A model generated the notes under the pieces. That model did no database searches. It was not told the DNA's origin and saw only the letters and a program-made list of their open reading frames with translations. A stretch of 63,937 bases of DNA, the filler included, from Kipferlia bialata (Eukaryota), in the NCBI GenBank assembly GCA_003568945.1. It is 8 parts of 8 records of this genome, joined end to end, with 100 filler letters (N's around TTAATTAATTAA, not from the genome) between each part and the next. Parts side by side here need not be neighbours in the genome. Positions count along the whole stretch, not along the records: positions 15,669 to 25,601 come from BDIP01001533.1; 7 more parts are not named here. One strand, written 5' to 3'. The position numbers and the translations under genes were made by a program. Shown here one piece after another: positions 8,748 to 63,871 of this stretch. Position 1 is the stretch's first letter, and each line of letters starts with the position of its first letter.

Positions 8748-9557
8748 TCACAGTCCTGATAGGAAGTCGGACAGACTGAGCTCTGGGGCGCCTCCCCTCT
8801 TGCCCTTGCCCTTTCCCTTGCCCTTAGGCTTGGCCTTAGGCTTAGCCTTCTTCTTGGGATTCCCAGCACTACCAGTGTTAGTAGCCTTGGACTTATCCTT
8901 GGCGGCACTTCCAGACTGGAGTGCCTTACTCGTACCCTTGCCCTTGCCCTTGTCACTACTGCTAACACCACTACTCCCAGACACACCAGTCCCCTTAGAC
9001 CCCTTGGACCCCTTAGACCCCTCAGACCCCTGGGCCACTGTGTTACTCCTGAATGTATCCATGCTATAGAGGGAGGTTGCTGGGGCGGCTGCTCCCCCTG
9101 TCCTATCACTCTTCTGAGGCCCTGTGCCCTTAGCCTGCTTGCCCTTGAGAGACCTGCTGATCTGCTTCTTGCTAGTGATCAGGCGCATCCCCTGCTGCCC
9201 ACACACAGTACATGTGGCCACCACGTGCCCCTTCTGCACACACATCGAGGCAGAGGCCCCTGCTATCAGATACGCCCCACACCTGGGACACATCTGCCTG
9301 GCCATGCGCTGCGGCAGGGCTGGGGGTGAGGGCTCTAACAGAAGAATCTCCGGGTGGAGTCTAAAATTGGACACCGTGAGGGCAGACAGATGTACAATAT
9401 TAGAGGAATGGAGATAGGACTCACCCTTGTCATCCTTGGCTAGCTCAGTCTGTATCAGCTGTCCGTAATGTTGAGACAGACGGGGGTGGTTGCAGGTAAG
9501 ACTGTAGAGCTTCAGCAGGTGGGTCACCCGCCCTGAAGCCTCTGCTGTTTTGGACAT
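8748..9557 (-). CDS. RPP21: RNase P/MRP subunit Rpp21/Rpr2-like zinc-ribbon protein with a Lys-rich C-terminal tail
   Basis: RLSQHYG...LPQRMARQMCPRCGAYLIAG...VATCTVCG (CxxC...CxxC) matches the Rpr2 pattern. In-frame 105-nt intron at 9320-9424 (GTGAGT...CTCACCCCCAG). ATG at 9557. Confidence 0.8.
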   Translation of the reverse strand: MSKTAEASGRVTHLLKLYSLTCNHPRLSQHYGQLIQTELAKDDKGESYLHSSNIVHLSALTVSNFRLHPEILLLEPSPPALPQRMARQMCPRCGAYLIAGASASMCVQKGHVVATCTVCGQQGMRLITSKKQISRSLKGKQAKGTGPQKSDRTGGAAAPATSLYSMDTFRSNTVAQGSEGSKGSKGSKGTGVSGSSGVSSSDKGKGKGTSKALQSGSAAKDKSKATNTGSAGNPKKKAKPKAKPKGKGKGKGKRGGAPELSLSDFLSGL

Positions 9558-9722
9558 TACTGATATCAAGGAAGAGAGCTGGTTTGACTCAGCCTCAAGA
9601 CGGCAGAAACATGTCTAGACCCTTCTGCCGGAGACTTGGCCCTGACTCAGAGGTCTCTCCTGTCCACCCACCTCTGCATATCGTACTAAACCCAAAGCAC
9701 CCGTTGGTTGTGACTATTCAAA

Positions 9723-9941: not shown

Positions 9942-10041
9942 NNNNNNNNNNNNNNNNNNNNNNNNNNNNNNNNNNNNNNNNNNNNTTAATTAATTAANNN
10001 NNNNNNNNNNNNNNNNNNNNNNNNNNNNNNNNNNNNNNNNN
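9942..10041. other. Artificial contig linker (N44-TTAATTAATTAA-N44)
   Basis: Six-frame stop linker between N runs. Identical linkers at 15569-15668, 25602-25701, 35631-35730, 45653-45752, 55674-55773 and 60619-60718. A plain scaffold gap lies at 54066-54183. Confidence 0.98.
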
Positions 10042-15414: not shown

Positions 15415-15732
15415 CTGGGGGGTGAGACAAGGGTGAACGAGTTATATATATATAGTATAATATATGCATTCACAACTACCGGGCAACCTGGAACCTGGGG
15501 GTGAGACGAGAATAGTACAGGATATAAGGGGGGGGGGGGGGGGGGGGGGGGAGGGAAAGGGGAAAAAANNNNNNNNNNNNNNNNNNNNNNNNNNNNNNNN
15601 NNNNNNNNNNNNTTAATTAATTAANNNNNNNNNNNNNNNNNNNNNNNNNNNNNNNNNNNNNNNNNNNNTATATGTATCTATATGTGTATCTATTGAGTAT
15701 ACGAAGAGGGGGAGAGAGAGAGACCTCTCTAG

Positions 15733-16149
15733 ACTGGTGGGGGCAGCAGACAAGGAGACCGTGTTCAAATACGTACCAAGGTATCACAATATTGTACATG
15801 TATATGTATGTATCCCAAGGTATCATTGTGTCGTTACCGGTCTTCAGAGACAGTTGCCAACCTCTCCTAGAATTCTTATTCCGTATATGTATTCTATGTT
15901 TCTGATAGAACATTGCTCACCCCAGGCTTGTCTCTGACCCTGCCTATGCTGCAGAGACCTTTGCCCAGTTAGGCCCTCTGGCTGGGATGGGGGTCACGGG
16001 GGACATACTGCCAGTGCTGATAGGTGAGTAGGGAGTATATAGGTATATGCATATATATATTGAGAGAGAGCGGGGTGGGGGGGTGGAGGGATGGGGGTCA
16101 CGGGGGACATACTGCCGGTGCTGATAGGTATATAGTAAACAATATATGC

Positions 16150-16183
<34 letters not shown>

Positions 16184-18942
16184 GGACGTGGTATGTGATG
16201 GATAGCCATGGGTGTCACGTGGGACATTCTCTCACTGGGACATTCTCCCACTTCTGATCCGTATACGGACGGTGTGCTGTATTGTATAGTTTGGTATATT
16301 TATAATGAACACACACTTCCTCACCCCCCAGCTGCCCACAAGGACTTCCAGACACAGGCCGCGGCATTCCTGGCAAGGTATGCGGTTACCAACCCACTGT
16401 ACAGTTTTGTTACTGCGTGATTACCAATTGTTCTTGTTCTATTTTCTTAATGTATATATGTATATATATATGTCTCCCACCCCAGTGTGCTTGAGAGGGA
16501 TGTCTCTAGAAGGGCCAAGCTCAGGGGCAAGCAGCCAAGAGATGCCACTCTGGAGATGCTGGGTATGTGTCTACCTTTCCCGAATCATACTTTCTCCCTC
16601 CTTCTCTCACTCTCGCTGTAAGTATACACCTGCCCATTCTTTAGACAACTACATTGCCTCTATGACACATACTCTCTCTCTCTGCATTCTCGCTCTCTCA
16701 CTCTTACCATAGGCAACTACTTTGTCTCCATGAACGCTGCATCCATCCGTGACACCCTTGATGAGGGTGGATACAGAGAGCCAGGGGCAGAGCAGGAGAA
16801 GGGGGCAGACTCCGCATTCAGAAGGCATGTCAAGTAGTCATTATATTCAATTGTTCATTAGTGACTTGTACTAAAGTGCACTTAAGTCTCACCCCCAGGT
16901 ACCCCGCCCCTGTTGCCAAGGCTGCCAGACGCATTGTGTCAGTCATATCCACGGCCACAGACGCCGGGCTCATCGATCTCAGGTACAGTGACTTCTTTAG
17001 TAGTGTTGTTAACGTACAGAGTTGTCTCTCATCGATCTGCGATACGCTGCACCTCTGTCTCCCTCTCCCCCTCACTCTTAGATTCACCCTGGGTGTCCTC
17101 GCTAGCTTCGGTCTGCATGAGATCCTCAGTGCTCTGCTGCTAGGTATGATGTAGAGATATTGGTGTGAGTGTGCATTCCATCTCTATCCTCTCTCTCTCT
17201 CTCTCTCTCTCTCTGTAGCATGTGGTATACATGTTATACATACTAACCCTAGCCTCCAACCAGCCCAATGAGGCTGTCTTGGCCGCCCTTGACAGTGGTG
17301 ATAGTGAGCATGCCATAGCCATCGCAGACGACCTTGACAGTGTCAGGAGAAGATATACTAAATATACATGTGTCTCTATATACATATGTATGGTTTATCA
17401 CGCATGGGATCTTACCATAGGGAGGTCCTCCGCTCCATCTGTGTCAGACTGGCCAGTGACGTCAACACACTGGAGCAGGTGTGGAGTTGTGTACATACTC
17501 TTACTGATACAGATACTATATATATATTGTTGTACCATCTCTCTTTTTCCCACCCCCCACCCCACCCCCTCTCCCCCTAACACCCAGGCCCTGCAGTTAC
17601 CTCCCTCTCACTCTCTTCCCCCCTCTACACCCCTTAATACCCAGGCCCTGCAGTTACCTCTCTCTCTCTCTCTCTCCCTCTGCACCCCTAACACCCAGGC
17701 CCTGCAGCTATCTCTCTCTCTCTCTCTCTCTCTTCCCCTCTACACCCCTAACACCCAGGCCCTGCAGTTACCTCTCTCTCTCTCTCTCCCTCTACCTCCT
17801 TAACACCCAGGCCCTGCAGCTAGCCGAGGAGGGCAGGGTGCGTATCCTGGAGCTGCTGCCTGTGCTACCCGAGATGGACAGACCAGGTATAGAGTGTATG
17901 TAAATATGGAGATATCTATTATATATTGATGAATGTACTCACTCTCCAGGCCCTGCCCGTGACCTCATCTGCTCCCACTTCCTAGGGTTCCACAGAGACG
18001 CAGGTATTGTGAGTATATGATTATTCGCATTGTTATGTGGTATGTATTAATAGTACGCACTGTATTGTTTGATATGCCACTTCCTAGGGTTCCACAGAGA
18101 CGGAAGTATTAATTTCACATGTATATATACCCTTACGTAGTGTACCGTCTATATACAACCTAACCCACAGCCGCTGAGAAGGACATTATCCCATATATTT
18201 TGTATGGACTGTATATCACGTATATTATACCTACTCTATATATATTCATTGCCTCACCCCCAGCATCTGAGAAGGATCGGGTGGAGAGGAGCATGACAGC
18301 TGCCAAGAGGATCAGATCAGATCTGGAGGCAGTCAGAGACAGGTAAGGGTTGTAGTGTGGTATAGTATCTATACACTATGCCAACATGCGAATATTTGTT
18401 AATACAGTATATTTAGTACCACACTCTCCCTTACCCTCTAGGCGCTTTGTTGTCAACCGCCGCACCAGTCGGTGCTCCCACCCTGACTGCTCTCAGTTGA
18501 CCATCGCCCATGCCTTTGTTGTGTTCCCATGTGGGCACACATTCCACGAGAGGTGTCTCGACTGCATAGGTGGGGGGCATTCTCTGTACTCTGTAGTCTA
18601 GTCAGTGACATCCCCTGGACCTCCCCTCTCTCTCCCTCTCTCTCTTTCTATGTACTCTATATAGTCTCACCACCAGTCAGTGACATCCCCTGGACCCCCT
18701 TCGAGGACCCCTCCATAGCCAAGGAGAGAGAGAGCGGCAAGGACAAGGAGAGGGAGAGAGAGAGGGAGGAGGCAGAGAGGGAGGCAGAGAGAGAGAGAGA
18801 GAAGGCCAGGCTTGGCCGTGACAACCTCATCTCAGAGTGCCCCTTCTGTGGGGATAGAGACGTGGCCCTCTCCTCTAGAATCATGATACCCATCGGGTCT
18901 CTGCCCTCTGAGAACCTCAGGGGAGACTGGGGGCTCAACTAG
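15733..18942 (+). CDS. VPS18: Vps18/Pep3 (HOPS/CORVET subunit), C-terminal portion, multi-exon
   Basis: Spliced RILELLPVLPEMD...RDLICSHF...SMTAAKRIRSDLEAVRDR, then RING-H2 C..C...FVVFPCGHTFHERCL...ECPFCG...DWGLN*. This is the typical Vps18 C-terminus. Confidence 0.85.
17578..17822 (+). repeat. Five tandem copies of acceptor + exon start (AACACCCAG|GCCCTGCAG(T/C)TA) separated by (CT)n; only the last continues into the Vps18 exon
   Basis: Copies begin near 17579, 17636, 17689, 17750 and 17802. Confidence 0.92.
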
Positions 18943-19517
18943 GCTTTCTAGATTGTCTTGAAGGTCTAGAAGGCCTAGAGGGGGTGTGTTAGTAGTGAGT
19001 GGCCGACGGGCGGCATCACTTTGTCATTTTGTGTTGTTTATTGTCTCTCTTAATAGAGCGTTGTATCACATGAGGTTCTCTAGGAATTCTTGCTCATTGA
19101 CAAAGCCAAATGTTTGTTCCGATTATCACCACCAATTGGATAGAGCATATTCACATCCTTCAACACCATGTGTCCCTCGCCCAAGACTATGTTGTGTCAT
19201 CTTCTTCTATATTGCACTGTAAAACCTCTAGAAAGGAAGAGCAACCCACTCCAATACAAATAGTTGGACATGAGACAACCACGCTCAATATAACCTTGCT
19301 TGTTGGGGAGGCCCGACATGTCGGGATAGACCTTTACTCCTTTCCCTGGGTCTCAGGCTGAGAGGGCGTCTGTGGCACCCCTAGGACTAATGCCACCTGA
19401 TACATGAGACAACAGTGATATGATGATCCAGCTGCTGTAGAATATAGATACACCATCACAAGAAGAAAGTTATGTTACAAGTACCTGCAGTACAAATATA
19501 ATATGGATACTCCCATA

Positions 19518-22500
19518 TCAAATTGGTACCTGCTCGATGTGTGTGTATGACCTCAATTTCTGAGTCATTCTCTCCCTTTCCTTCATGCTATCAAGTAGAC
19601 TGGCCAATTCACTCCTGTGAGCCTTGAGCCGAGACTCGACTGACGCTGATCTCTCCAATAGTCTCGTGCCCTTCAGTCTCTGCAACCTGAGAATGAGTAT
19701 CCTCTTCACTTAACAACAACACTACGAGTAAAGTCATACACATCATAGAGGTGACAACTAGGTATCATTCACTACTGGATGTAAGCAGACATACGACGAC
19801 CACATCCAACTGACGTTGCCACAATGTAAGTAGAAATGACTGTGAATTATGTCAAACGCATGTATGAGTGTAAATCTATGAGACCATCTTAAAAGAATAG
19901 ACCCACAATATAGTCTACCTGAACTCCAGACAGTCAATCTCTATCTCATGGTCCTCTATGCGCTGAGCCGACACTCGGGGCATCTGCAAATGAGCACTGA
20001 AACCATTCGAAATAGTCTTGAAAAGGGCTGACAACGGGGTCACATATGTCAAAGGCACTATAGTTGTTAGAGTCCAGTAAACGTACTGAATGTAGTTCCT
20101 GAAGCAGATCTCTGGCCGGACTGCCCAGTGGCAGGTCCTCGAAATGCTTAGGATGGATCTGGCGTAAATATCGACAACCTCTACTATACTCTGAGAAACA
20201 ATACATAGCATGAATTACTAGCATATACCTCAGTCATGCCATCTGAATGACATGATGTAGAGGGGTCTGTCAGTGATGCACTATCAGTCTCTGGGGCTCT
20301 TGGGGGTGTTTCTCTGTCGGTCTCTGGATGCACAGGCCGCCCTAAGCCAGATGCATCTACACCCCCACTAGAGTCATCCTGAGACGCACTGGAGGGGCGC
20401 CCGAGACCTGAGGCATCAACATCCCCAATATTTTCTCTCTGTTGGTGACATACAGCGCAACGGAGACCTGAGGCGTCTACACACCCGCTAGCGTCACACT
20501 GACAAGTACAGTGTAGCAGCGTCTCTCTCTCTGCATATCTCAATGCATCTTCCTCTGTCCAGTAGGGAATCTCGTACTGACAGGACTTGCGCCCCAATCC
20601 CGATGCATCTGGCTTTGTCGAACCAGACCCAGACCCAGACCCAGACCGGGACCCAGATACACTTGGGAAGCTAGTTAGCAGAGAATCAGGTGGCTTCCTC
20701 TTGAGGTCCATCGGCCAGTGGGAGTACTTAGCCAGGTGCACTGGGTCTGCTATCTGGGGGCAGTCCTCCCCAAGGGAGCAGTGGTAGGGAACGTCCAGCA
20801 CCCTCACACTCTGCATAACCCCATCCACCTCCACTTGTATATCAGGGTGCTCAAAGGCCAGCCGATGCCCCATGTCTCCTAGCCTGCTCTGACAGTCTGC
20901 ACCTAATGTACACATGGGTCTCTTGGGGTGCAGGAAGTTCTTGTCATGCTTATACCTGCCCTTCTTCTTACATCTAGAGCCATAGTGACATACGTGGGTG
21001 TATGCTGCCACGTGTGACTGGTCGATATTGTCCTTATCATGGTACATTGAGCACCCGATAGAGTTCCAGCACTCCAGGCCGTGATTCACATTGACATATT
21101 CAATAGTCATATCATCACCGGGGAGCATCACTGTGCTACCCATTTCCCCCTTCACAGGTAGAAGTGTCTCCTCCTTGTCCGTAGTGAGAATGCACCCCTC
21201 CACAGAGGACACCTCTCCCTCGCTGCTGGATGCAAACCTGACTGCATAGTCTACAGGTTCGAGTAGGTTGCGTCTGCGCAGTGTGAGAGCAGGCATCGTT
21301 GTCTGCTTCTGCTGCCCTATCCTCTCCACCTCCACGGCGTCCTTGGTAACCCTAACCCTATAGCGTCTGAAGGAGAGCTTGTCTAGCGACAGGTGGCAAA
21401 GGTCGGAGGAGGAGACAGAGTCAGAGGGGAGAGAGTCTCTGGCGTCTTCAATGGATGCAGGGCATACGTCGACACTATCCTCAAGGAACCGGATTGTCAC
21501 ACACGTTGTCACACCAGTATCCAGGGGGGACAGGTTTAGATATACCTGAAGTCAGTGGGAAGGTCGTAGGCAACTAAGGTACCAGAATAATATCAGCAAC
21601 TATGAAGAGAGCCACTTCATTTACCTGACCGTGACAAGAGAAGACAATGTATGTCGCTGGATCTGTCTCCAGAGGAATAATGCCCGGTATCCGCACAGAC
21701 TCTGTGCCCACCCCAAACTGGTATCCAACCTCGGTACCACCATACTCATTACTCAGACACTTCTTGTACCTGTCCCAGTCAGTGACTACCAAAGAACCCT
21801 TAGGCAGCATCTGAGTGTAAGCTTTAGTGTGATTAGAAGCAGTGTGTCATGAGAAAAGAAGAATGTACAGAATGAACTGTTACCTCGAGAACATGTCTAC
21901 TCTCCTCAGAGAGAGAGTCATAACCGGCAGTATCCAGCACTACATGCTGTACGTAGTCAAGCCCTAGCGTGGAGGGTAAATGGCCCTCTATCAGGGTATG
22001 CGACTCCCACACATTTGGGTCACACATGGCCTCAACGGCCCCTCTCTCTGTGGGAGGTAGATGGGCATACTTCAGCATAGAAACCATCTCATCTGCAAGG
22101 AGTTGAGTCGTCCCCCTCTCTGCTACAGAGAACCGGTTCCTGTGGTAGTTGTCTACACGCTCCTGGGAGAGTGGCTTTCCTGGTAGTGCTAGGAACGGCC
22201 TCCCACACTGGTGCATACTCTCTGCTTGTGTGACATAGAAGGTAGCTGCCGACCAGTGGCAGTCGCTGTGTGGGTGCCGCATCACAGAGGGACGGAACAC
22301 AATCAGCGCCTCCCCATAGCGATGGTTGGTGTTGGGACCGATCACTGTGAAGATGGAGTCATCTGTGCTGACGAGGTGGTCTACCTCGTACCCAATACCA
22401 GTCGCCTTCTGGCTCACTGTAGATGCAGCTGTTACTATTCGCTGACACAACACGTCGAGTTGCCTGCACTGTTCATCACCGAGAGCAGTAGCCAATGAGT

Positions 22501-25415
22501 CCTTCTGGAGTCTCTCATGGTATCCCATAGTAGAAACACCAGTGTCTGCCAGTCTCAAGGCAGTACACACCTCCATGTAGTCTGCAACAACTGAGCGCTT
22601 TCCCTGATATCAATAGTAGTGGCCATGAATAGTATGATAGTATACTCATATAGTGTATAATAGGAACACTTACCTTGGGAAGAGTCTGAATATATGGGTG
22701 TAGTCTCGCTCTCTTGGACAGGAACCCGGGCTCAGAGATCCTCTTCTGTTGTTGCCGGGACATTAAGAACCCAGTTCCTAGTACCAACTCCAATGTGGCA
22801 AGACTCAGTCTGTGTGTGGGCCTCAGGGCCTGCACAACTGGCACTAGGTTGCTGATACTGTATGAGGGGGTCTTGACCCGCATACTCTGGTAGTTGCGCC
22901 TGAAGTCCGCTGGGACGGCAGGAGAGCCAAGGGCGAGAGGGAGCGGGGAAGGCGAATGGGCTCTTTGCTTGACATGGCGAATATCAGTCCAGCGCTTGCA
23001 GCCATCGCCACAAGCTGACCGGATGTCTGGTATACCCTAGTAGTGAGTATACTATGAGTCTAATTATGCCACCATATCTAGGTACTCTACACCAATAGAG
23101 TAGTACTATGGGGTTCAAGTACCTTGTGGCTATACTCCCATAGATGTGCCTCCCAGAGGTGTGGTACCCCAGGCATATCAAGAGGGCAAGACACACCATC
23201 ACAGGGCTCCCTAGGCAGATGAATCCTCACGCTGATGTGGTCCATGACACGATGACTGGTGTTGCCGTCCAGATACGCTATCAGGAAGGGGCACTGCTGA
23301 CCGTCACAACACACCTGCACTCCCTCTCCTGTGTGGAATAGGGGTCCAGCGAAGGGGTCAGGTGACTCAGTGTAGGAAGGTGGGTTGGTGGGGTGGTACC
23401 ACCTCTGACGGTGTGTCGCAGTAAGGTCGGGACACAGCACTCCGGCGGGACAGGCAGGGAGACTGACATCAGGACTCCAGTATACTACTGTCCAACACTG
23501 ACTATATATATGCTGAAATGCGAGAAGTACATCAATATGATACTATATGCGTAAACATACCTCGCCATTCCCCCGTTCAGTCTTCTGGTCTCCTCGCGGA
23601 TTCGCTAGCATAAGATATTTGGCTACATTGAATGAGAATGACTTGCAATATATGGGTGTATATTAGTCGATATAGAACCCACCAGAGCTGTCATCTGATC
23701 CAATAGGTCTCCTACCGAGCCTCTCATTGCCGGATCGGTCTGAAGTTACTCAGTATATGTTAATTAATATGGATACATATTATTGAGACTGCTTAGTACT
23801 AAATTGCGGTAGATACCTCCACCATGGAGTTGATTATGGCAGCCAGCCCTGGAACTCCAGTCTCCTCATCGGTCAAGACACTGGGGGATAAGAGTGCAGT
23901 ATAGGAGATATAGAGGAATGAATAGAGAAAAACATTGATAGTGATGTAGCTACTATTCTTATGCATGTATAGTGATGTCATCGTCGGTCAGGACACTGGA
24001 GGTCAGGAATACGAACAGCGAGGAGCTACCATATAAGGAAGATAAGTACACTACATCCCGATATTTCTGGAAAACAAGAGTGTCTAGATATATATGTGTT
24101 ATCTCCCGTACCCAAAGTGTCCTTCCTTGTGGACCAGTCTTAGGTCCTCTCTGTCTTGTACCTCAGACAGCACCCAGTGAGGATGTATCATCTGATAATT
24201 AGTAGAGTGTTAGTTCTACTTCCATTAGTATTAGCCGAATGCAAACTCTCCTATCTATATACCTGGTTGAAGATGAGACCTGCTGAAAAGAGGTCAGCCT
24301 TTGTGCCGTACTGAGGGTCACCGTACTGATCAGGGGGTGACCCATTGGGACGGGCATCGGCACTGTAGGGATAGCACTTGGGTGAGTGGGGATAGACTAG
24401 TATGTATATACACAATATATGTATATGGAATTCAAATATACTTAGATGTAGGACAGACACAATTAGAACACATATGCTGAACTTCTCTCTATGTGTATCC
24501 ACATAGGTATATATAAGACCATATTCCTGAAAGTATAAGGGGAACTCTATTTACACTGACAGACCCTGAATAGACTGACCCGCATACTGATACTGATACG
24601 TCTCTACGCGTATGATCTTTAGGTACTGAAACACAGATATACATATGTGTATATGAGTACAGTGCTGGCACATACCTCAGGTGCCCTGTAGAGTGGGTTC
24701 CCAACATCGAAGGTGGCTGTGATACTCGCCTAATATGAGTGTTGGAGAGAAGTATTCTATGACGACCCAGAGCCAATGAATCAGACTATCCATACAACTC
24801 CACAAGCCCCTTATCTAGAGACTGTGCTATCTATATACAGAATAAGGAGGTAAAGTACATACAGTATACCTCGTGGTACATGGGTTTGCACAGTCCAAGG
24901 TCCACAAAGTGCACGTCTGCACCGTCATCTCGGATGTCCACCATGATGTTGTCTGGCTGATGGTTAGTAGGGGGCTGGTCCTAATAGCAGCGACACATCC
25001 TTAACCAAAAGTATTCAATACACAGTACCTTGAGGTCCCTGTCGATCAGGCTCTGTTACTCCCGGAATAACTATATGTACAGATATATACAATATATATA
25101 CATATATATATTGTATACGCTATACCTTGATGTCCCTGTCGACCAGGCTCTGTTCCTCCCGGTATAACTATATGTACAGATATATACATATATATACATA
25201 TATATATATATATATTGTATACGCTATACCTTGATGTCTCTGTGGATCAGGCTCTGTTCATCTAGGTCTCTGAGACCAACGAGAATCTGAGGTAAGGTGA
25301 GACCCACTATCTTTCATAGTAGTGCTAAGTGTTGCGACGAAGAGAGAGTCAAACTCACATGGAAAATAGAGATAGAATGAGTGCAAGAGAGTTTACCTGT
25401 TCCATGATGGATAAC
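19518..25415 (-). CDS. Multidomain protein: protein kinase C-lobe + 4 PBZ-like zinc fingers + DarT-like ADP-ribosyltransferase domain + 4 PBZ-like fingers + coiled-coil tail (N-terminus off contig; C-terminal end approximate)
   Basis: Phase-consistent exons: 25230-25286 (LIHRDIK), 24870-24956 (PDNIMV...FVDLGLCK), ...YGTKADLFSAG, 24112-24191, 23817-23880, 23683-23739 (DPAMRGSVGDLL), 23561-23604, 23123-23462, 22674-23036, 21884-22603, 21625-21810, 20229-21545, 19919-20190. Eight C-x4/5-C-xn-H-x5-H motifs. Confidence 0.8.
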
Positions 25416-25543
25416 CCGAAGTTAAAGTGTGTGGGGGATACTCAGATGTAAATCAAGAGATACAGACACATACATATAGAGTGTCAGTGTAGTACACATA
25501 TGTAGAAGGAGAGAGACAGAGTACCTGCTCCATGATGGATAGC

Positions 25544-25601
<58 letters not shown>

Positions 25602-25704
25602 NNNNNNNNNNNNNNNNNNNNNNNNNNNNNNNNNNNNNNNNNNNNTTAATTAATTAANNNNNNNNNNNNNNNNNNNNNNNNNNNNNNNNNNNNNNNNNNN
25701 NGGT

Positions 25705-25748
<44 letters not shown>

Positions 25749-25832
25749 GCAGATTGGACGTTGGAGAGACAATCCACACAAGTCCCAATCTAGACGACAC
25801 TGACGATAGGTGACGTATATATACACACACTG

Positions 25833-26881
25833 ACCTCCTCGATGCTGGGGTAGAAGGGCCTGAAGTGTCTGGAGAGCATCGGCTGGATGAGGGAGCTGAA
25901 CTTGTCCTCGGCCATGCCCTGACCCGGCACATACCCCTTGGCCCTGAGCACCCTGGCCATGACACACCCGCCAAAGGTATCCACAAAGGTGGAGCAGAGG
26001 GAGGCGGCAGTGGCACTGGCCCGGCCCATCCTCACCTTCCCTATGCCAACACCAAGGGGCAGCACATACCCACTCTTGGTGGTGTAGTACCTCTTGCGGC
26101 GCAACCTGGCCAGGAGGCTGGAGACCAGGCTCTGGGGAATGGCGCTGGCCCTGCAACCGGACTTCTTGGCCTGGTATGTGACCCAGTCACTGAACTGGAG
26201 CATGGTGACACCCCCCAGCCACCCGACAAAGGCATGGACCGCTGTCTCAATGGCATCGCACATGGCCTCACGGGCCTGCTCTGAGTTGGGGTGGGGTCTG
26301 CTCTGCCTGGGCTTGGGGGCTGGGGCCTTCTTGGCAACAGGTGCACTGGCGCCGTCCCCCTTCCTAGCTAGCCTCTCGCTCTCCATGTCACGCAGCTTGT
26401 CAGCCTCCCTCTCCCTATCCCTCAGAGACTGCACACTCACCCTACTCCGCCTCTTCTGCTGCTTCTCTGGTGCTGGCCTCTCTCCCTTGCCGCCCTGCCT
26501 CCTTTCCTGTGGCTCCTCTGCGTACTTGTACTTCTGCGGCCTGCACACCAGACCCACAAAGAGCAGACCCCCACTCTCAGTACGCGCCTTCCCCTGAAGG
26601 GCGGTCTCCTTATGCCGCACGTACACGCCGCCCTCGATCTCTGTCAGCGGGTACCGGCTGAACAGGCACCCGAGCATCTCTGCCATGGGTGGGACAGGGC
26701 CAGAGGCATTACAGGACAGCCACTCAGAGACACACATCTCATACAGCTGGTGCTGCGACACAACATGCGGCTGCACAGAGACACGCCGCAGGATGGTATC
26801 CGCATGGGAACCCAGGAAGGCGTCCATATCGGTGCGATGATGGTCGTAAGAGGTCTCGCAGTAGAGTGCCCTACATGACAT
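25833..26881 (-). CDS. Hypothetical protein, long first exon, truncated by the contig end
   Basis: 363-codon ORF with coding-like GC3 and a charged basic linker; probable donor GAG|GTCAGT near 25833. No recognisable domain. Confidence 0.65.
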
Positions 26882-27018
26882 GGACTATTTATAGTTTGGT
26901 CTCCTACACCCTTTTGTTGTTTTTGAATACTATTCTCACTCTATGATTCCGTTGAGAGTTGACACGGTCATCAATGACCTATTGGACGTCTGAAGGAGAG
27001 CGCCCACTGGTACCTGAA

Positions 27019-34741: not shown

Positions 34742-36222
34742 AGTGCCTATCGCCTGGGGCCTCTTGTATATAGGAGCGCGCATTCTATGTATCTGGCTGG
34801 AAGTGGGATACCCCCCCATACAGTATGACGTGGCGGCATGGGTGATGGTACCTACCGCCTACAGTGCGATGTCTGTGATGTACCAATGGGCACTCTGTAC
34901 CTCAGTGGAGGGAGAGAGAGAGTGGGACCCCTTGGGGTTGATGAGCCCTACTTCGCGAGGTTTCTGTATCAGTATCAGTATCTGTTTCTGACGCATGGCC
35001 CGCTTTGGAGAGAGTGTTCTTCTGAGCTACCCTACGGGGGTATCGAGACATTGAATACCATTCGACAGGTGAAGTGAGTTGGATCGCGTGCATTGGTATC
35101 AGATTGCATATGAGCAGTGGTTTACCCAGCTCAGGGTTGTCTTTGGACTCAAGATGCGTAGTATGTATCGGTTGTGCTCTTCCCTCATTGGAGTGCTCTC
35201 TCGTGGTCTTTCACCGTATGTGTAGTATCATAGAAGCAAGAAGAATAGATAATAAGCAACGGGGAATATGATACCTCAATAATATATTGTTATCTTGGTG
35301 AAAGAGTAGTGGTCAGACTGACATGGCTTAGTGCCATACTGAGTGCAACAACTCCATATGTCTGCAACTCAAAGGAATTGCCACCCTGACACGAGTAACC
35401 GCTGGACCAGTAAGGACAAAGAGTAGTGTATACACACAGCAGATACAGTCCATTTATGTGGGAACTGTATCGCTAATGGAAGTGCAGCTGGCCTGACACC
35501 AGTACAGGCGTGTCAGTGCATACAGTGAATGATGTGCATCCATCCTGCACTGCATTGCTACTGGACAGAGAGGTGCCCATCTAGGGTCAGTCTAACTACT
35601 ATATATGTATACTATAGTATAGTATAGTGANNNNNNNNNNNNNNNNNNNNNNNNNNNNNNNNNNNNNNNNNNNNTTAATTAATTAANNNNNNNNNNNNNN
35701 NNNNNNNNNNNNNNNNNNNNNNNNNNNNNNCATGGATGGATGAAAGTATGAAGCGTTTCGACCGTTTGATCTCGCGAGCCCTAGATATAAATACTATTTA
35801 TAGCGCCGTCATGACCCGTGTCATACTAGAAAGAAAGAAAGAACGGCAATGCTTGTAAGTGTAAATGAATTCGTGACGTAGAATGTTATTACTGTGATAA
35901 AGCGACGTACACCGCAGTAGCGCTGACTCAAGAGACGATATCACAGACTGGGGAAAGAATTGTATTATCGAGTATACACATCGAGTACAGTATCATATTG
36001 AATACATGATATACCTCAGTAACAGTGACTGTAGTGACCCCATCACAGAGAGTGGTAGAGACAGGACATATTGAATATACACTATACACAGTATATATAT
36101 ATATACTCTGTACTAAACTATACCTCAGTAACAATGACTGCAGTGACCCCATCACTGAGTGTGGTAAAAACAGAACATGTAGAATATACACTATATATAC
36201 TATATATATATACTAAACTATA

Positions 36223-45644: not shown

Positions 45645-45752
45645 CTAGGGGTNNNNNNNNNNNNNNNNNNNNNNNNNNNNNNNNNNNNNNNNNNNNTTAA
45701 TTAATTAANNNNNNNNNNNNNNNNNNNNNNNNNNNNNNNNNNNNNNNNNNNN

Positions 45753-55669: not shown

Positions 55670-55779
55670 CCCCNNNNNNNNNNNNNNNNNNNNNNNNNNN
55701 NNNNNNNNNNNNNNNNNTTAATTAATTAANNNNNNNNNNNNNNNNNNNNNNNNNNNNNNNNNNNNNNNNNNNNCCCCCT

Positions 55780-60573: not shown

Positions 60574-60873
60574 CTGGGGGTGAGGGGGGGGGGGGGGGGG
60601 GCACCCTTCTTTTTGGGGNNNNNNNNNNNNNNNNNNNNNNNNNNNNNNNNNNNNNNNNNNNNTTAATTAATTAANNNNNNNNNNNNNNNNNNNNNNNNNN
60701 NNNNNNNNNNNNNNNNNNTGCCCTGTCCCTTTAATACTCCCCCCCCCCCCCACCCCCCGCCCTCTCTTTCTCTCTCTCTCTTACCCCTCAGAGAGGACTA
60801 CAAGCTGGACACCCTGCTTGATCTCATATACTCTCTCTCTCACTCTTTCTCTCTCTCTCCTCTTACCCCTCAG

Positions 60874-61738: not shown

Positions 61739-62127
61739 AGAGGGTGCATGTGTCCCCTTACCAGTAGGGTTAATGTATACGTGTAGAGAGGGTGCATCAC
61801 CCCATACCTGTAGGGTATAGCTGTGCACACGTGTATGCGGAACATGGAGACATATGTGGTTGTGTTGTGTTGTAGAAACATGGTTGAGTAAATATTGAAG
61901 ATACTTGGGAGCTGCTATGACTGCCTTTCTGGGGTGGTTCTAGGCGTGCTGTGACTCACTGAGAGAGTCGATGCACACTATATGCAAACTTACATTGTAT
62001 ACGCGCTGGACCCTTATGAAAATGCGAGACGAAAGGGTGCAGATTAGTTTTGGCTGACGATGATCGTGTTGTCTGCCTCTCTACCTTACCCACTGAGGGG
62101 CCACACTCCACCACAGCCCACAGACAC

Positions 62128-63582
62128 ATGTTCAAGTTCCGGCTGTCTCATGTCGGGCACCGTGGTAATCGTAGCGGGATGGCGTACATTGGGGGTCTGA
62201 CTGCCGAGGGTGACATTGATCCATACAGTGAGACCCTGGGGCGTGTCATCATTGTTGGTGAGAACAGTCAGACCAGCAGTGACAACTGCGTTATTGCCAC
62301 CCTCGATGCTGAGACTGGGAGTATGTCTCACAGGGCCATTCCATGTCCTGTGCCTGCCCTTCGCTTATCGACTGCTACTAGGGTGGGAGAGTGGGTGTTT
62401 GTCTTCGGTGGGAATCCAGGTTCTGTTGACACTCTCTACCGGTTCGACATAGCCACTGAGAAGTGGACCCAGGTGCAGAAGAGAGGGGTGTGGCCCAAGG
62501 GCAGGTGGGGGCAAGGAGCCTTCTCACTCGGGGGGAAGCTGTTCATCGCAGCGGGTTGCGATGGATCCAAAATCTCTTCTGCCTGGGTCTTCGACCCCCA
62601 GGGTGAGACTTGGACCCAGCTACCTGACTACCCCGTTGGCCTTCAGCGTCCTGCTGTGTGTACTGTTGGGGATCGTGTACACCTGATAGGAGGATCTGCA
62701 CCCACCACTCACTGCACCTACTCTGAGGCAGGTGGGTGGCACAAAGAGGCAGACCTGCCATTTAGGGTCTATGGTGCAGGTGCTGTGGCCGTGGGATCCA
62801 ACATCCATGTCATGGGTGGGAATGGTCACAGCAACCAGGTACACGTGTATGACACCGTGACCAAGAGATGGGAGGAGTCTGGGACACTCCCCGTCTCATT
62901 CAGCTATGGCAGTGCATGCTACACCACACCTTCGAGTGTGATCATCCATTCTGAGAAGCAGCTCATTATTGGGGAGTCAGAGGAGCTCAAGCAGAAGCCT
63001 GAGAGGGAGAGGCTAGCACAGGAGGAGAGAGACAGAGTGGCAGCCCAGTTGGCAGAGGCAGAGAGGCAGCGTGTGTACCAGGAGCAGGTCTCCCTCCTCC
63101 ACTCCCTTGTGACTGACCTTGGGTGTGATGTGGAGGGTGTGGCGTCTCTGACACCCGAGGAGTGCAGGCACCACATCCTGTGCACAGTGGCAGCCAGGGA
63201 GGTTGACAGGAGGAAGACTGAGCTCTGCCCTCGGTTCTCAGCCTTCGACCCGTCCTCTCTCCCACCCCTCAGGACACTCATCAGTGACGCAAAGGTATGC
63301 AACCCCCCCTTCCCTCTTCACCTCTTCTTTGTATCTCACCACACTCTCTCGACCCCCCCCCCCTCTCTCACTCTCTCATTACTCTCAGCATTTGCAACCG
63401 ATACCTCAGCGTGTCTCTTTCTCTCTTTCTCTCTCTCTCTCTGTTTGCATATATACGCCTCTGACCCCAAGCCGTTGACGCCGTTGACGCCAGTGCCCTC
63501 AGTCTCTCTTCATTCTCTCTCCTTCTCTCTGCATATTCTTTCCTGTCTTTCACAGGCCTTTGATGCCGATGCCCTTCGCCCC

Positions 63583-63619
<37 letters not shown>

Positions 63620-63871
63620 ATATGTACAAGAATAACCTCAGGCCTTTGACGCCGATGCCCTTAGCACAGCACTGGCCAACCTCAGTGAGTACCTGCCACT
63701 GGCAGAGCGCATAGACCCACAGGTGCTCTCACTCACTCCTCTCTCTCTCTCTGTCTTGCCGTAAGTGCTGTGTCAATGAGGGTCAACCTCTCGGACCTCA
63801 TGTCCCTCTCCATCCCTCATATGTCAGGTGAAGACTCTCAAGGAGTTCACTGCCCAGCACCCAATAGACAA
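62128..63871 (+). CDS. Kelch-repeat beta-propeller protein with a C-terminal coiled coil; continues off the window
   Basis: Exon 62128-63294 has six blades (VFVFGG...FDIATEKWT, WPKGRWG, FDPQGETWTQLPDYP, VHLIGG, IHVMGG...YDTVTKRWE), then ERERLAQEER... Later exons lie near 63642 and 63828. Confidence 0.88.

Follow-up and report, generated by a model that had tools for sequence, protein, structure and literature searches.

A Kipferlia bialata gene joining a protein kinase part, PBZ-like finger arrays and a predicted ADP-ribosyltransferase-fold domain

One locus of Kipferlia bialata appears to encode a protein kinase, two arrays of zinc-finger-like units and a domain resembling DNA ADP-ribosyltransferases of the DarT type. 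This raises the question of whether these parts belong to one gene and, if so, what such a protein could do.

A single spliced gene

The kinase-finger-ART fusion is one real spliced gene, as a reading from the sequence alone had proposed. It lies on the minus strand at 25286 to 19334 of the window, the whole stretch of 63,937 nucleotides that was analysed. The model, which draws on RNA contigs, has 17 exons in one frame with its sole stop at the end. All 16 introns have GT-AG borders, and contigs of one RNA run contain spliced joints for 14 of them. The encoded protein is KIPB_006122, and the gene model equals the database protein P0001 from residue 4 on. Exons 1-6 lie at 25286-25230, 24956-24870, 24729-24676, 24376-24263, 24191-24112 and 23880-23817, exons 7-12 at 23739-23683, 23604-23561, 23462-23123, 23036-22674, 22603-21884 and 21810-21625, and exons 13-17 at 21545-20229, 20158-20087, 19983-19919, 19686-19530 and 19396-19334 (all minus strand).

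An RNA check had been proposed for the junctions across 23683-23123 and 22674-22603, and joints are present there at 23683/23604, 23561/23462, 23123/23036 and 22674/22603. The last is anchored by 24 letters on one side, below the tool's 31-letter bar, but the domain around it is uninterrupted in relatives. Introns 24192-24262 and 24957-25229 have no joint in the contigs of the RNA run, one joint having been dropped at repeats. Two further RNA runs placed nothing on the locus and weigh neither way. It is very improbable that gene calling or assembly merged a kinase gene with an adjoining ART gene. Such an artefact would fit the missing joint at intron 24192-24262 and the origin of all RNA support in a single run, seen as contigs. 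Against it, a 942-letter spliced contig spans finger and ART exons, four joints at the depth of that contig reach the kinase exon 24191-24112, and the stretch between the kinase and ART parts is free of stop codons.

Every motif quoted in the sequence-only reading is in its place, but its gene borders have to be redrawn. The gene stops at 19334 rather than 19518, and the proposed exon 19919-20190, although open throughout, is two exons in the RNA (20087-20158 and 19919-19983). A start near 25415 is unsupported: the RNA continues past 25289 into letters that the window lacks, 30 of which are visible. The gene's 5' exons are thus missing from the window, and the kinase N-lobe is off the contig. 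An ORF at 25790-26884 was weighed as a 5' exon and rejected, since it is on the far side of a linker and the upstream letters of the RNA do not occur in the window. Pfam scans of nine single ORFs in this region were uninformative.

The kinase part (23695..25286, minus strand) matches Pkinase (PF00069) with E 1.7e-15 over profile positions 104-258 of 263, so that the C-lobe alone is present in the window. It carries the HRD-x-K-x-x-N catalytic loop, the DFG-like DLG and APE motifs of eukaryotic protein kinases, and subdomains IX and XI. The N-lobe is not within the sequence seen, and the kinase could therefore be partial or lack activity. A PARG may lie further upstream of the kinase part.

A predicted ART fold and its nearest relatives

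The central domain (residues ~362-686; 21742..22859, minus strand), delimited from a predicted model and alignment, is predicted to have the ART superfamily fold with a helical insert and with its first-strand His and late Glu kept. The model is of high quality (pLDDT 90.1, pTM 0.88). Among 48,161 chains compared with it, all 9 with Z of at least 8 are ART-fold proteins: DarT (11.2-10.4, the four top values, all DarT1 or DarT2), SopF (9.8), OspC3/CopC (8.8-8.1) and Tpt1 (8.0). A Foldseek comparison with known ARTs had also been suggested, and its best 10 rows are SopF (DUF3626), CopC, OspC3 and DarT, none of them at E<=0.001 (best 3.2e-3). A profile search of PDB sequences found no relative (best E 0.57). 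Atlas rows for the domain were all below 0.9, and a viral fold search gave none at E<=0.001; DUF3626 appears among the leads of both, alongside giant-virus rows in the latter.

The expected active-site positions are strongly conserved. KIPB_006122 retains His377 (22812-22814; kept in 101/105 relatives), Asp498 (22379-22381; 125/127), Phe508 (22349-22351; 123/127), His625 (21998-22000; 112/119), Glu629 (21986-21988; 111/118) and His631 (21980-21982; 111/121), and Tyr519 lies at 22316-22318 (all minus strand). In the model, His377 and Glu629 each sit at a predicted strand. The earlier proposal of an ART fold with retained His and Glu is therefore upheld, and its DarT-like label holds for the fold, where DarT is the best match by Z, and fails for family membership.

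Like DarT1 and DarT2 (PF14487), the domain has an ART core (rmsd 3.4-4.2 A over 169-186 residues), a first-strand His, G-x-x-S-R and a late Glu. It differs in its low identity (8-10%), in a helical insert of ~90 residues, and in belonging to a eukaryotic, multi-domain, intron-rich family with an E-x-H motif. None of 59 family members matched PF14487 or the PADLOC DarT model at E<=1. Within residues 488-545 no column has a majority Arg, and Asp498 occupies the DarT Arg position, as placed by spacing alone; Arg378 or Arg558, both conserved, could fill the Arg role in space. The lack of Pfam and PADLOC matches, the lack of a conserved Arg at the expected site and the OspC-like E-x-H together indicate, at the level of sequence, that the domain is not a DarT family member.

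These comparisons bear on whether the protein is a eukaryotic counterpart of DarTG, in which the ART would modify a base or phosphate end of DNA or RNA, the fingers would bind nucleic acid and a PARG macrodomain would reverse the mark. We consider this unlikely, if a serious contender. The four top Z values belong to DarT enzymes, the N-terminus has a DarT-like H-x7-IL-x2-G-x2-S-R pattern, and Ser/Thr509 and Tyr519 recall S63 and F72 of DarT1. DarT systems also have a macrodomain-type eraser partner, fused to DarT in the bacterial protein 7omu, and relatives of KIPB_006122 carry a fused PARG; PARG removes ADP-ribose from nucleic-acid phosphate ends (PMC8883491). On the other hand, DarT depends on an Arg (R52 in DarT1), and at the expected place the family has Asp, with Arg in 0/127 rows; DarT also depends on a base-holding Asn or His, and the family conserves neither at that site; the absent PF14487 and PADLOC matches point the same way.

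SopF, which contains DUF3626 (PMC6682159; PF12294), heads the Foldseek rows (E 3.2e-3 and 8.3e-3) and aligns over 187 residues at its Z of 9.8. SopF is a secreted effector and the family here is not one; it has finger arrays with a PARG or kinase, and PF12294 matched 0/59 members. OspC3 and CopC (PF06128) share the His...aromatic...E-x-H layout. Their E326/H328 and D177 (OspC3) and E325/H327 and D172 (CopC) resemble the E-x-H found here and the aromatic-x-x-Asp that precedes the second core strand by about 10 residues. The residue mapping to both OspC3 and DarT rests on spacing, since neither profile alignment reached significance (probability 1.1% and 0.3% respectively), although Glu629/His631 fall on OspC3 E326/H328 in the OspC3 alignment. 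Only one candidate, Asp498, is available for the two catalytic Asp residues of OspC/CopC; the second (OspC3 D231, CopC D230) is replaced, by spacing, with a conserved Ala-Ala-Thr. The OspC/CopC profile PF06128 and the C-terminal ankyrin repeats were not found in KIPB_006122, and PF06128 matched 0/59 members.

ART folds include NADases as well as Tpt1, and CopC itself hydrolyses NAD+ (PMC9239266). The domain could then hydrolyse or cyclise NAD+ without transfer, yielding a free ADP-ribose-type signal or an NAD+ drain, with the extra invariant His and Asp activating water. We find this improbable, given that the nearest folds belong to transferases and that the domain's usual companion hydrolyses ADP-ribose conjugates.

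Finger arrays, beta domain and tail

The eight PBZ-like fingers of the sequence-only reading survive as a pattern that exceeds chance (7 matches, whereas none of 5000 shuffles gave more than 3), but not as eight equal units. Finger 1 (23393..23452) matches the relatives' finger profile as a C2H2 unit with E 2.2e-6; fingers 2 and 3 (23126..23308) are degenerate, carry insertions and match only weakly and in part (E 0.02 and 0.078); and finger 4 (22956..23012) has a shortened Cys spacing (E 0.0035). Fingers 5-8 (20718..21071), at 21071-20994, 20990-20928, 20912-20847 and 20780-20718, match with E 4.8e-4, 1.2e-5, 3.5e-6 and 4.8e-9, and their model has pLDDT 78. All are on the minus strand, and five of the eight units keep strict C-x5-C-xn-H-x5-H spacing.

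These units were also described as established PAR readers, which the profiles do not bear out. PF10283, the zf-CCHH (PBZ) profile that had been proposed as a check, gave no row on KIPB_006122 (P0001) at E<=10, and the full PBZ consensus, with its aromatic and basic PAR-contact positions (PMC4756826), occurs in 0/8 fingers here and in 2/544 fingers of relatives. The fingers share with the APLF/CHFR PBZ the C-x5-C...H-x5-H spacing, a Gly at +3 and the aromatic two before the last His (426/544 in relatives). They differ in that a basic pair rarely follows the second Cys (20/544), and this rarity would suit the nucleic-acid binding supposed for a DarTG counterpart. A fold search with the finger model gave CHFR rows at weak E values (4.8 and 7.6). 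There was no VIA match for the model at Z>=2, and neither result informs on the fold; a profile search of PDB sequences with the finger stretch found no relative.

It seems quite improbable that the protein is a PAR-reading DNA-damage scaffold. In such a scaffold the fingers would bind chains made by ordinary PARPs, the kinase would signal, and the ART fold would do no more than bind NAD+ or ADP-ribose. PBZ domains occur mainly in DNA-damage proteins (PMC4245714), and the finger arrays of 10 of the 61 scanned relatives pass the PF10283 cut-off. However, the catalytic Glu and the residues around it hardly vary among relatives, the fingers depart from the PAR-binding consensus, and the CHFR rows are weak.

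The ART domain and the second finger group are separated by a Methyltransf_FA-like beta domain of ~170 residues (21141..21732, minus strand), overlooked in the sequence-only reading. Its Atlas score is 0.95, with the best 10 named matches all to one family, and PF12248 matched 5/59 family members. Downstream of the fingers, the sequence shows a low-complexity tail (20229..20687) that contains Ser-Gly runs and short repeats. The terminal coiled coil claimed earlier is possible at 19530..19932, but it is short and its heptad pattern weak (8/16 hydrophobic a/d positions in the best phase; both features minus strand).

A eukaryotic family with a variable N-terminal slot

We collected 183 relatives, and every named one is eukaryotic; bdelloid members are among them. 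A microbial PARG profile is N-terminal in 40 of the 47 with at least 400 residues before the ART domain, and an intact GGG-x6-8-QEE occurs in 25/150 proteins. Judged from sequence, the usual architecture is eraser, fingers, writer, beta domain and fingers, and kinases apparently replaced PARG in the N-terminal slot twice, independently. Writer, candidate readers and kinase thus do share one polypeptide, as first proposed, but in a derived form. Other partner domains include a second ART, PARP, LRR-Roc-COR, vWA and RING, and database look-ups gave paralogues at 37-40% identity. Such partner variety with diverged paralogues is usual in conflict systems. The suggested search for paralogues and a macrodomain or NADAR eraser found a PARG-bearing paralogue, P0003, in K. 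bialata, and no eraser in the window's part of the gene, whose 5' end is missing, or in 30 long window ORFs. Tblastn searches of plasmids (P0010) and phages (P0033), and P0033 word patterns in genome and viral contigs, found no members; these searches are insensitive and do not imply absence. A profile search based on words retrieved just 3 proteins. No description of an ART-finger-PARG/kinase family was found in the literature, and this eukaryotic family is apparently undescribed.

Going by the models, KIPB_006122 is most likely a predicted NAD+-dependent ADP-ribose writer with a swappable control module. More specifically, and with slightly less than an even chance of being right, we suspect that an ART of the DarT/SopF/OspC branch, joined to a kinase and eight zinc-finger units, adds one or a few ADP-ribose units to a protein, with the probable role of a switch in stress or defence. 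His377, Phe508 or Thr509, and Tyr519 are predicted to hold NAD+, Glu629 to drive nicotinamide release, and Asp498, His625 and His631 to shape the acceptor site. In the usual form, the N-terminal microbial PARG would trim the mark, and its place beside the ART would put writer and eraser in one chain. With a kinase in the PARG slot, the signal would be gated or passed on by phosphorylation, and the mark would be removed in trans, for example by P0003. The candidate fingers and beta domain may position the substrate or sense the trigger. A protein target is supported by OspC3 and CopC, protein-modifying enzymes that share the E-x-H/Asp pattern; the counterweight is that the highest Z belongs to DarT, a DNA enzyme. 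In addition, PARG is reported not to cut the terminal protein-ribose bond (PMC7050489), so a chain or a nucleic-acid end would fit better than a single unit on protein.

A chain is the product in another reading, which we think rather unlikely. Here a toxin-type, non-PARP ART would build short ADP-ribose chains that its own fingers hold and its own PARG trims, in an immunity system of free-living protists and rotifers whose slot takes an eraser, kinase, second ART or LRR-Roc-COR. If true, this would be a second route to poly(ADP-ribose) signalling, and KIPB_006122 its kinase-gated form.

The DarT/SopF/OspC branch of ARTs is familiar from bacterial toxins and injected effectors. The conserved family described here, predicted to share this type of fold, occurs in several distant eukaryote groups, is unrecognised by Pfam and is usually fused to an eraser. 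The kinase fusion is a lineage-specific variant; the ART family is the larger finding, and can be tested in Naegleria, Euglena and bdelloid rotifers. Whichever target the enzyme has would extend known ADP-ribosylation chemistry.

The microbial-type PARGs of eukaryotes, whose function PMC4245714 leaves open, may have their writer in this family. The passages there that describe, citing Slade 2011, a microbial PARG with PBZ repeats in the bdelloid Adineta vaga make no mention of an ART domain, beta domain or kinase form. With its PARG and finger repeats, the A. vaga protein probably represents the N-terminal half of the family's usual form.

Gene structure and transcript support

The sequence-only reading had described a kinase, eight PBZ-like fingers and a DarT-like ADP-ribosyltransferase (ART) in one gene, and the motifs it quoted are present on the minus strand of 19334-25286. 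A one-exon query returned a single protein, identical across the query, KIPB_006122 of Kipferlia bialata (1282 residues; P0001), which mapped back to the window as 17 exons in one frame with one stop and GT-AG ends in 16 of 16 introns. Because run X1 contains spliced joints, it represents RNA; 14 of its 15 listed joints are introns of this model with GT-AG ends, and the fifteenth (depth 66, other ends) is part of a different contig. The transcript is tiled from 19152 into the kinase by three X1 contigs (1479, 1329 and 942 letters), the kinase exons being placed on the 942-letter contig by depth (7.2) and its first 236 letters, with 8 of 22 pieces listed. In the RNA, the previously proposed exon 19919-20190 is two small exons, and the gene ends at 19334 instead of 19518.

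The 22603/22674 junction, singled out earlier for an RNA check, is bridged in X1 by just 24 letters, and two of the 16 introns have no X1 joint. One run thus gives the kinase-ART fusion good support, and no single read proves it. That an artefact of gene calling or assembly produced the fusion is very unlikely.

RNA extends past 25289 as a loose end that, allowing up to 3 mismatches, is absent from the window; its length is given as 255 letters, a value shared by all three loose ends and so probably a cap. The segment holding the gene (15669-25601) ends at 25601 and measures 9933 bases, equal to the listed length of P0001's contig; thus the contig does not include the kinase N-lobe. DNA past 25601 is an unproven neighbour of the gene. 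The window is split by N-flanked linkers, which carry stops in every frame, at 9942-10041, 15569-15668, 25602-25701, 35631-35730, 45653-45752, 55674-55773 and 60619-60718; four successive segments measure 9933, 9929, 9922 and 9921 bases, a series that looks like contigs ordered by length, and gene neighbourhood across linkers warrants no trust. The end of the HRD exon recurs twice in the next intron, imperfectly (3 mismatches in 29), at 25029-25057 and 25126-25154, and the upstream exon end has similar copies near 25400 and 25530, one of which served as the annotated start. Another RNA contig, at depth 66, matches some of the kinase exon sequence at 24676-24950 and diverges at both ends; it probably comes from a related kinase transcribed at a higher level.

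The predicted central ART domain

Residues 355-686 have no ART family match in Pfam. Searching with them found 183 proteins at E≤0.001, query counted, among 1.84 billion representatives, and 128 of the 150 listed, with domain spans of 250-520 residues, were aligned. In the 127 relatives, with gapped rows left out at each position, the conserved residues are His377 (101/105), Arg378 (85/104), Ser395 (97/110), Asp498 (125/127), Thr503 (118/127), Phe508 (123/127), Tyr519 (105/126), His533 (120/127), Thr544 (106/125), Arg558 (97/125), His625 (112/119), Glu629 (111/118) and His631 (111/121). P0001 retains all 13.

The predicted model (59-sequence input) has pLDDT 90.1 and pTM 0.88. With Foldseek nothing reached E≤0.001; the ten best rows are all SopF (3.2e-3, 8.3e-3), CopC, OspC3 or DarT. 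Among 48,161 chains, VIA-align gave nine matches at Z≥8, every one an ART fold (rmsd 3.1-4.2 Å over 108-187 residues): DarT2 (11.2, 10.8, 10.4), DarT1 (10.6), SopF (9.8), OspC3 (8.8, 8.1), CopC (8.7) and Tpt1 (8.0). Rows from Z 7.5 down are mostly helical-insert matches. An ART fold is a firm prediction.

DarT tops the Z scores, and the ART part of the earlier DarT-like claim stands; membership of the DarT family is not supported, no DarT profile of Pfam or PADLOC having matched any of 59 members. By spacing rather than coordinates, the loop ahead of the second core strand carries an invariant Asp and no conserved Arg. In DarT1, E152, R52, N104 and M71 are required, and so are the corresponding residues of DarT2 (PMC11543638). 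For CopC, PMC9239266 gives H137-F183-E325 plus H327, F207, D172 and D230, with E325, D172 and D230 essential; OspC3 relies on D177 and D231 (PMC11598138). As in OspC3 (E326/H328), the P0001 family has a late Glu followed by x-His. Profile alignments to three OspC proteins (1.1%) and to one DarT (0.3%) were non-significant; the OspC one set E326/H328 against Glu629/His631. Where OspC has its second Asp and DarT its base-holding residue, the family has, again by spacing, Ala-Ala-Thr. SopF acts on a side chain of a host protein. Its DUF3626 domain is described in PMC6682159. Sequence comparison leans to the protein-modifying side and does not settle it, and we file the domain under none of DarT, SopF/DUF3626 or OspC/CopC.

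Family architecture and the kinase form

Pfam found microbial PARG in 10 of the best 30 matches; among another 31 proteins, picked for length, 22 had it. A PARG profile built from 25 signature-bearing members matched 42 of 150 proteins. Where at least 400 residues stand ahead of the ART domain, it matched 40 of 47; the seven long members lacking it include proteins with a kinase (P0012), a second ART (P0032; the second writer is PF01129) and LRR-Roc-COR (P0053). Another relative, P0002, carries EF-hands and a PARP at the opposite end. In P0012 the kinase C-lobe alone is seen (Pkinase 102-259), and this may be a cut gene model. The GGG-x6-8-QEE signature is missing from several family PARGs (P0009, P0064, P0075, P0083, P0091, P0097, P0105 and others), which may be inactive binders. 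Of 30 members looked up, an organism name is attached to 14, every one eukaryotic; these members come from Kipferlia, Eukaryota sp. TZLM1-RC, GEM-RC1, Didymodactylos, Rotaria, Diphylleia, Naegleria, Pharyngomonas and Euglena. We take TZLM1-RC and GEM-RC1 to be metamonads.

Fingers flank the ART domain in most long members (at least two before in 55/72, at least three after in 31/38), a count that misplaced the Kipferlia paralogue P0004. By eye, P0004 lacks PARG, kinase and second finger group; the paralogue P0003, 2844 residues long, combines PARG and the ART domain with 13 strict fingers and vWA. Residues 686-860 of P0001 form a Methyltransf_FA-like beta domain (Atlas 0.95), absent from the sequence-only reading; PF12248 was found in 5 of 59 family members. 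P0001 has seven loose C2H2 matches, against at most three in 5000 shuffles. With a profile of 544 relatives' fingers, five of its fingers score E<0.001, one 0.0035 and two are partial. Since some relatives pass the PF10283 cut-off (6/30 and 4/31), the arrays are, on sequence, PBZ-related. PAR reading, also claimed earlier, is putative. No P0001 finger fits the full consensus of PMC4756826, and the 544 fingers show the aromatic before Gly in 106, the basic pair in 20 and the full pattern in 2. The same paper describes a human PBZ without the residues needed for binding. For fingers 5-8, a model (pLDDT 78) gave only weak CHFR rows and no VIA match. A PAR-reading scaffold is, of the functions weighed here, the least likely.

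Members with PARG are scattered throughout a 98-domain tree. With 16 rows chosen from it, P0001 clusters with both of its Kipferlia paralogues (100/97), and the PARG signature is intact in P0003, one of these two. A clade uniting the kinase fusions P0001 and P0012 is rejected (p-AU 1.2e-46), the pair having been named after the first tree was seen and several branches being long. The simplest reading is that eraser-fingers-writer-beta-fingers would be the old form, its first slot taken by kinases twice, a swap valid for P0001 only if its missing 5' part holds no PARG.

Possible function and surroundings

Our leading, still tentative, reading is that P0001 would be an NAD+-dependent transferase attaching one or a few ADP-ribose units to protein, its kinase gating or relaying the mark and erasure occurring in trans. 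The main difficulty for protein marking is PARG bond specificity: PARG is described in PMC7050489 as cleaving between riboses while leaving the terminal link to protein uncut, and microbial PARGs as strict exohydrolases. This keeps alive a nucleic-acid target, a minority possibility, and a chain-building enzyme, which is improbable and falls partly inside the protein-marking reading; an NADase is less likely again. A defence role is suggested by fast divergence and partners only.

Among openly licensed articles and preprints, no description of the ART domain or its architecture was found; the family may be listed in Slade 2011 or in the 2012 and 2015 ART surveys by Aravind and colleagues, or in their supplements. 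The domain belongs to an ART family of eukaryotes, apparently unnamed, within the branch of bacterial toxins, and P0001 is a kinase-bearing form of it; the original observation holds with corrections, its interpretation in part. The nearest published statement is that a rotifer PARG bears PBZ repeats (PMC4245714), and passages in PMC8883491, PMC12522546, PMC9503650 and PMC7955679 deal with other ART families.

A convergent gene terminates at 18356-18942 (plus strand) in what, judged by eye, resembles a split RING finger; RNA depth is high at 18900-19123. Elsewhere in the window are a kelch-repeat ORF (62020-63714, plus) and an Rpr2-like match (8748-9614, minus).
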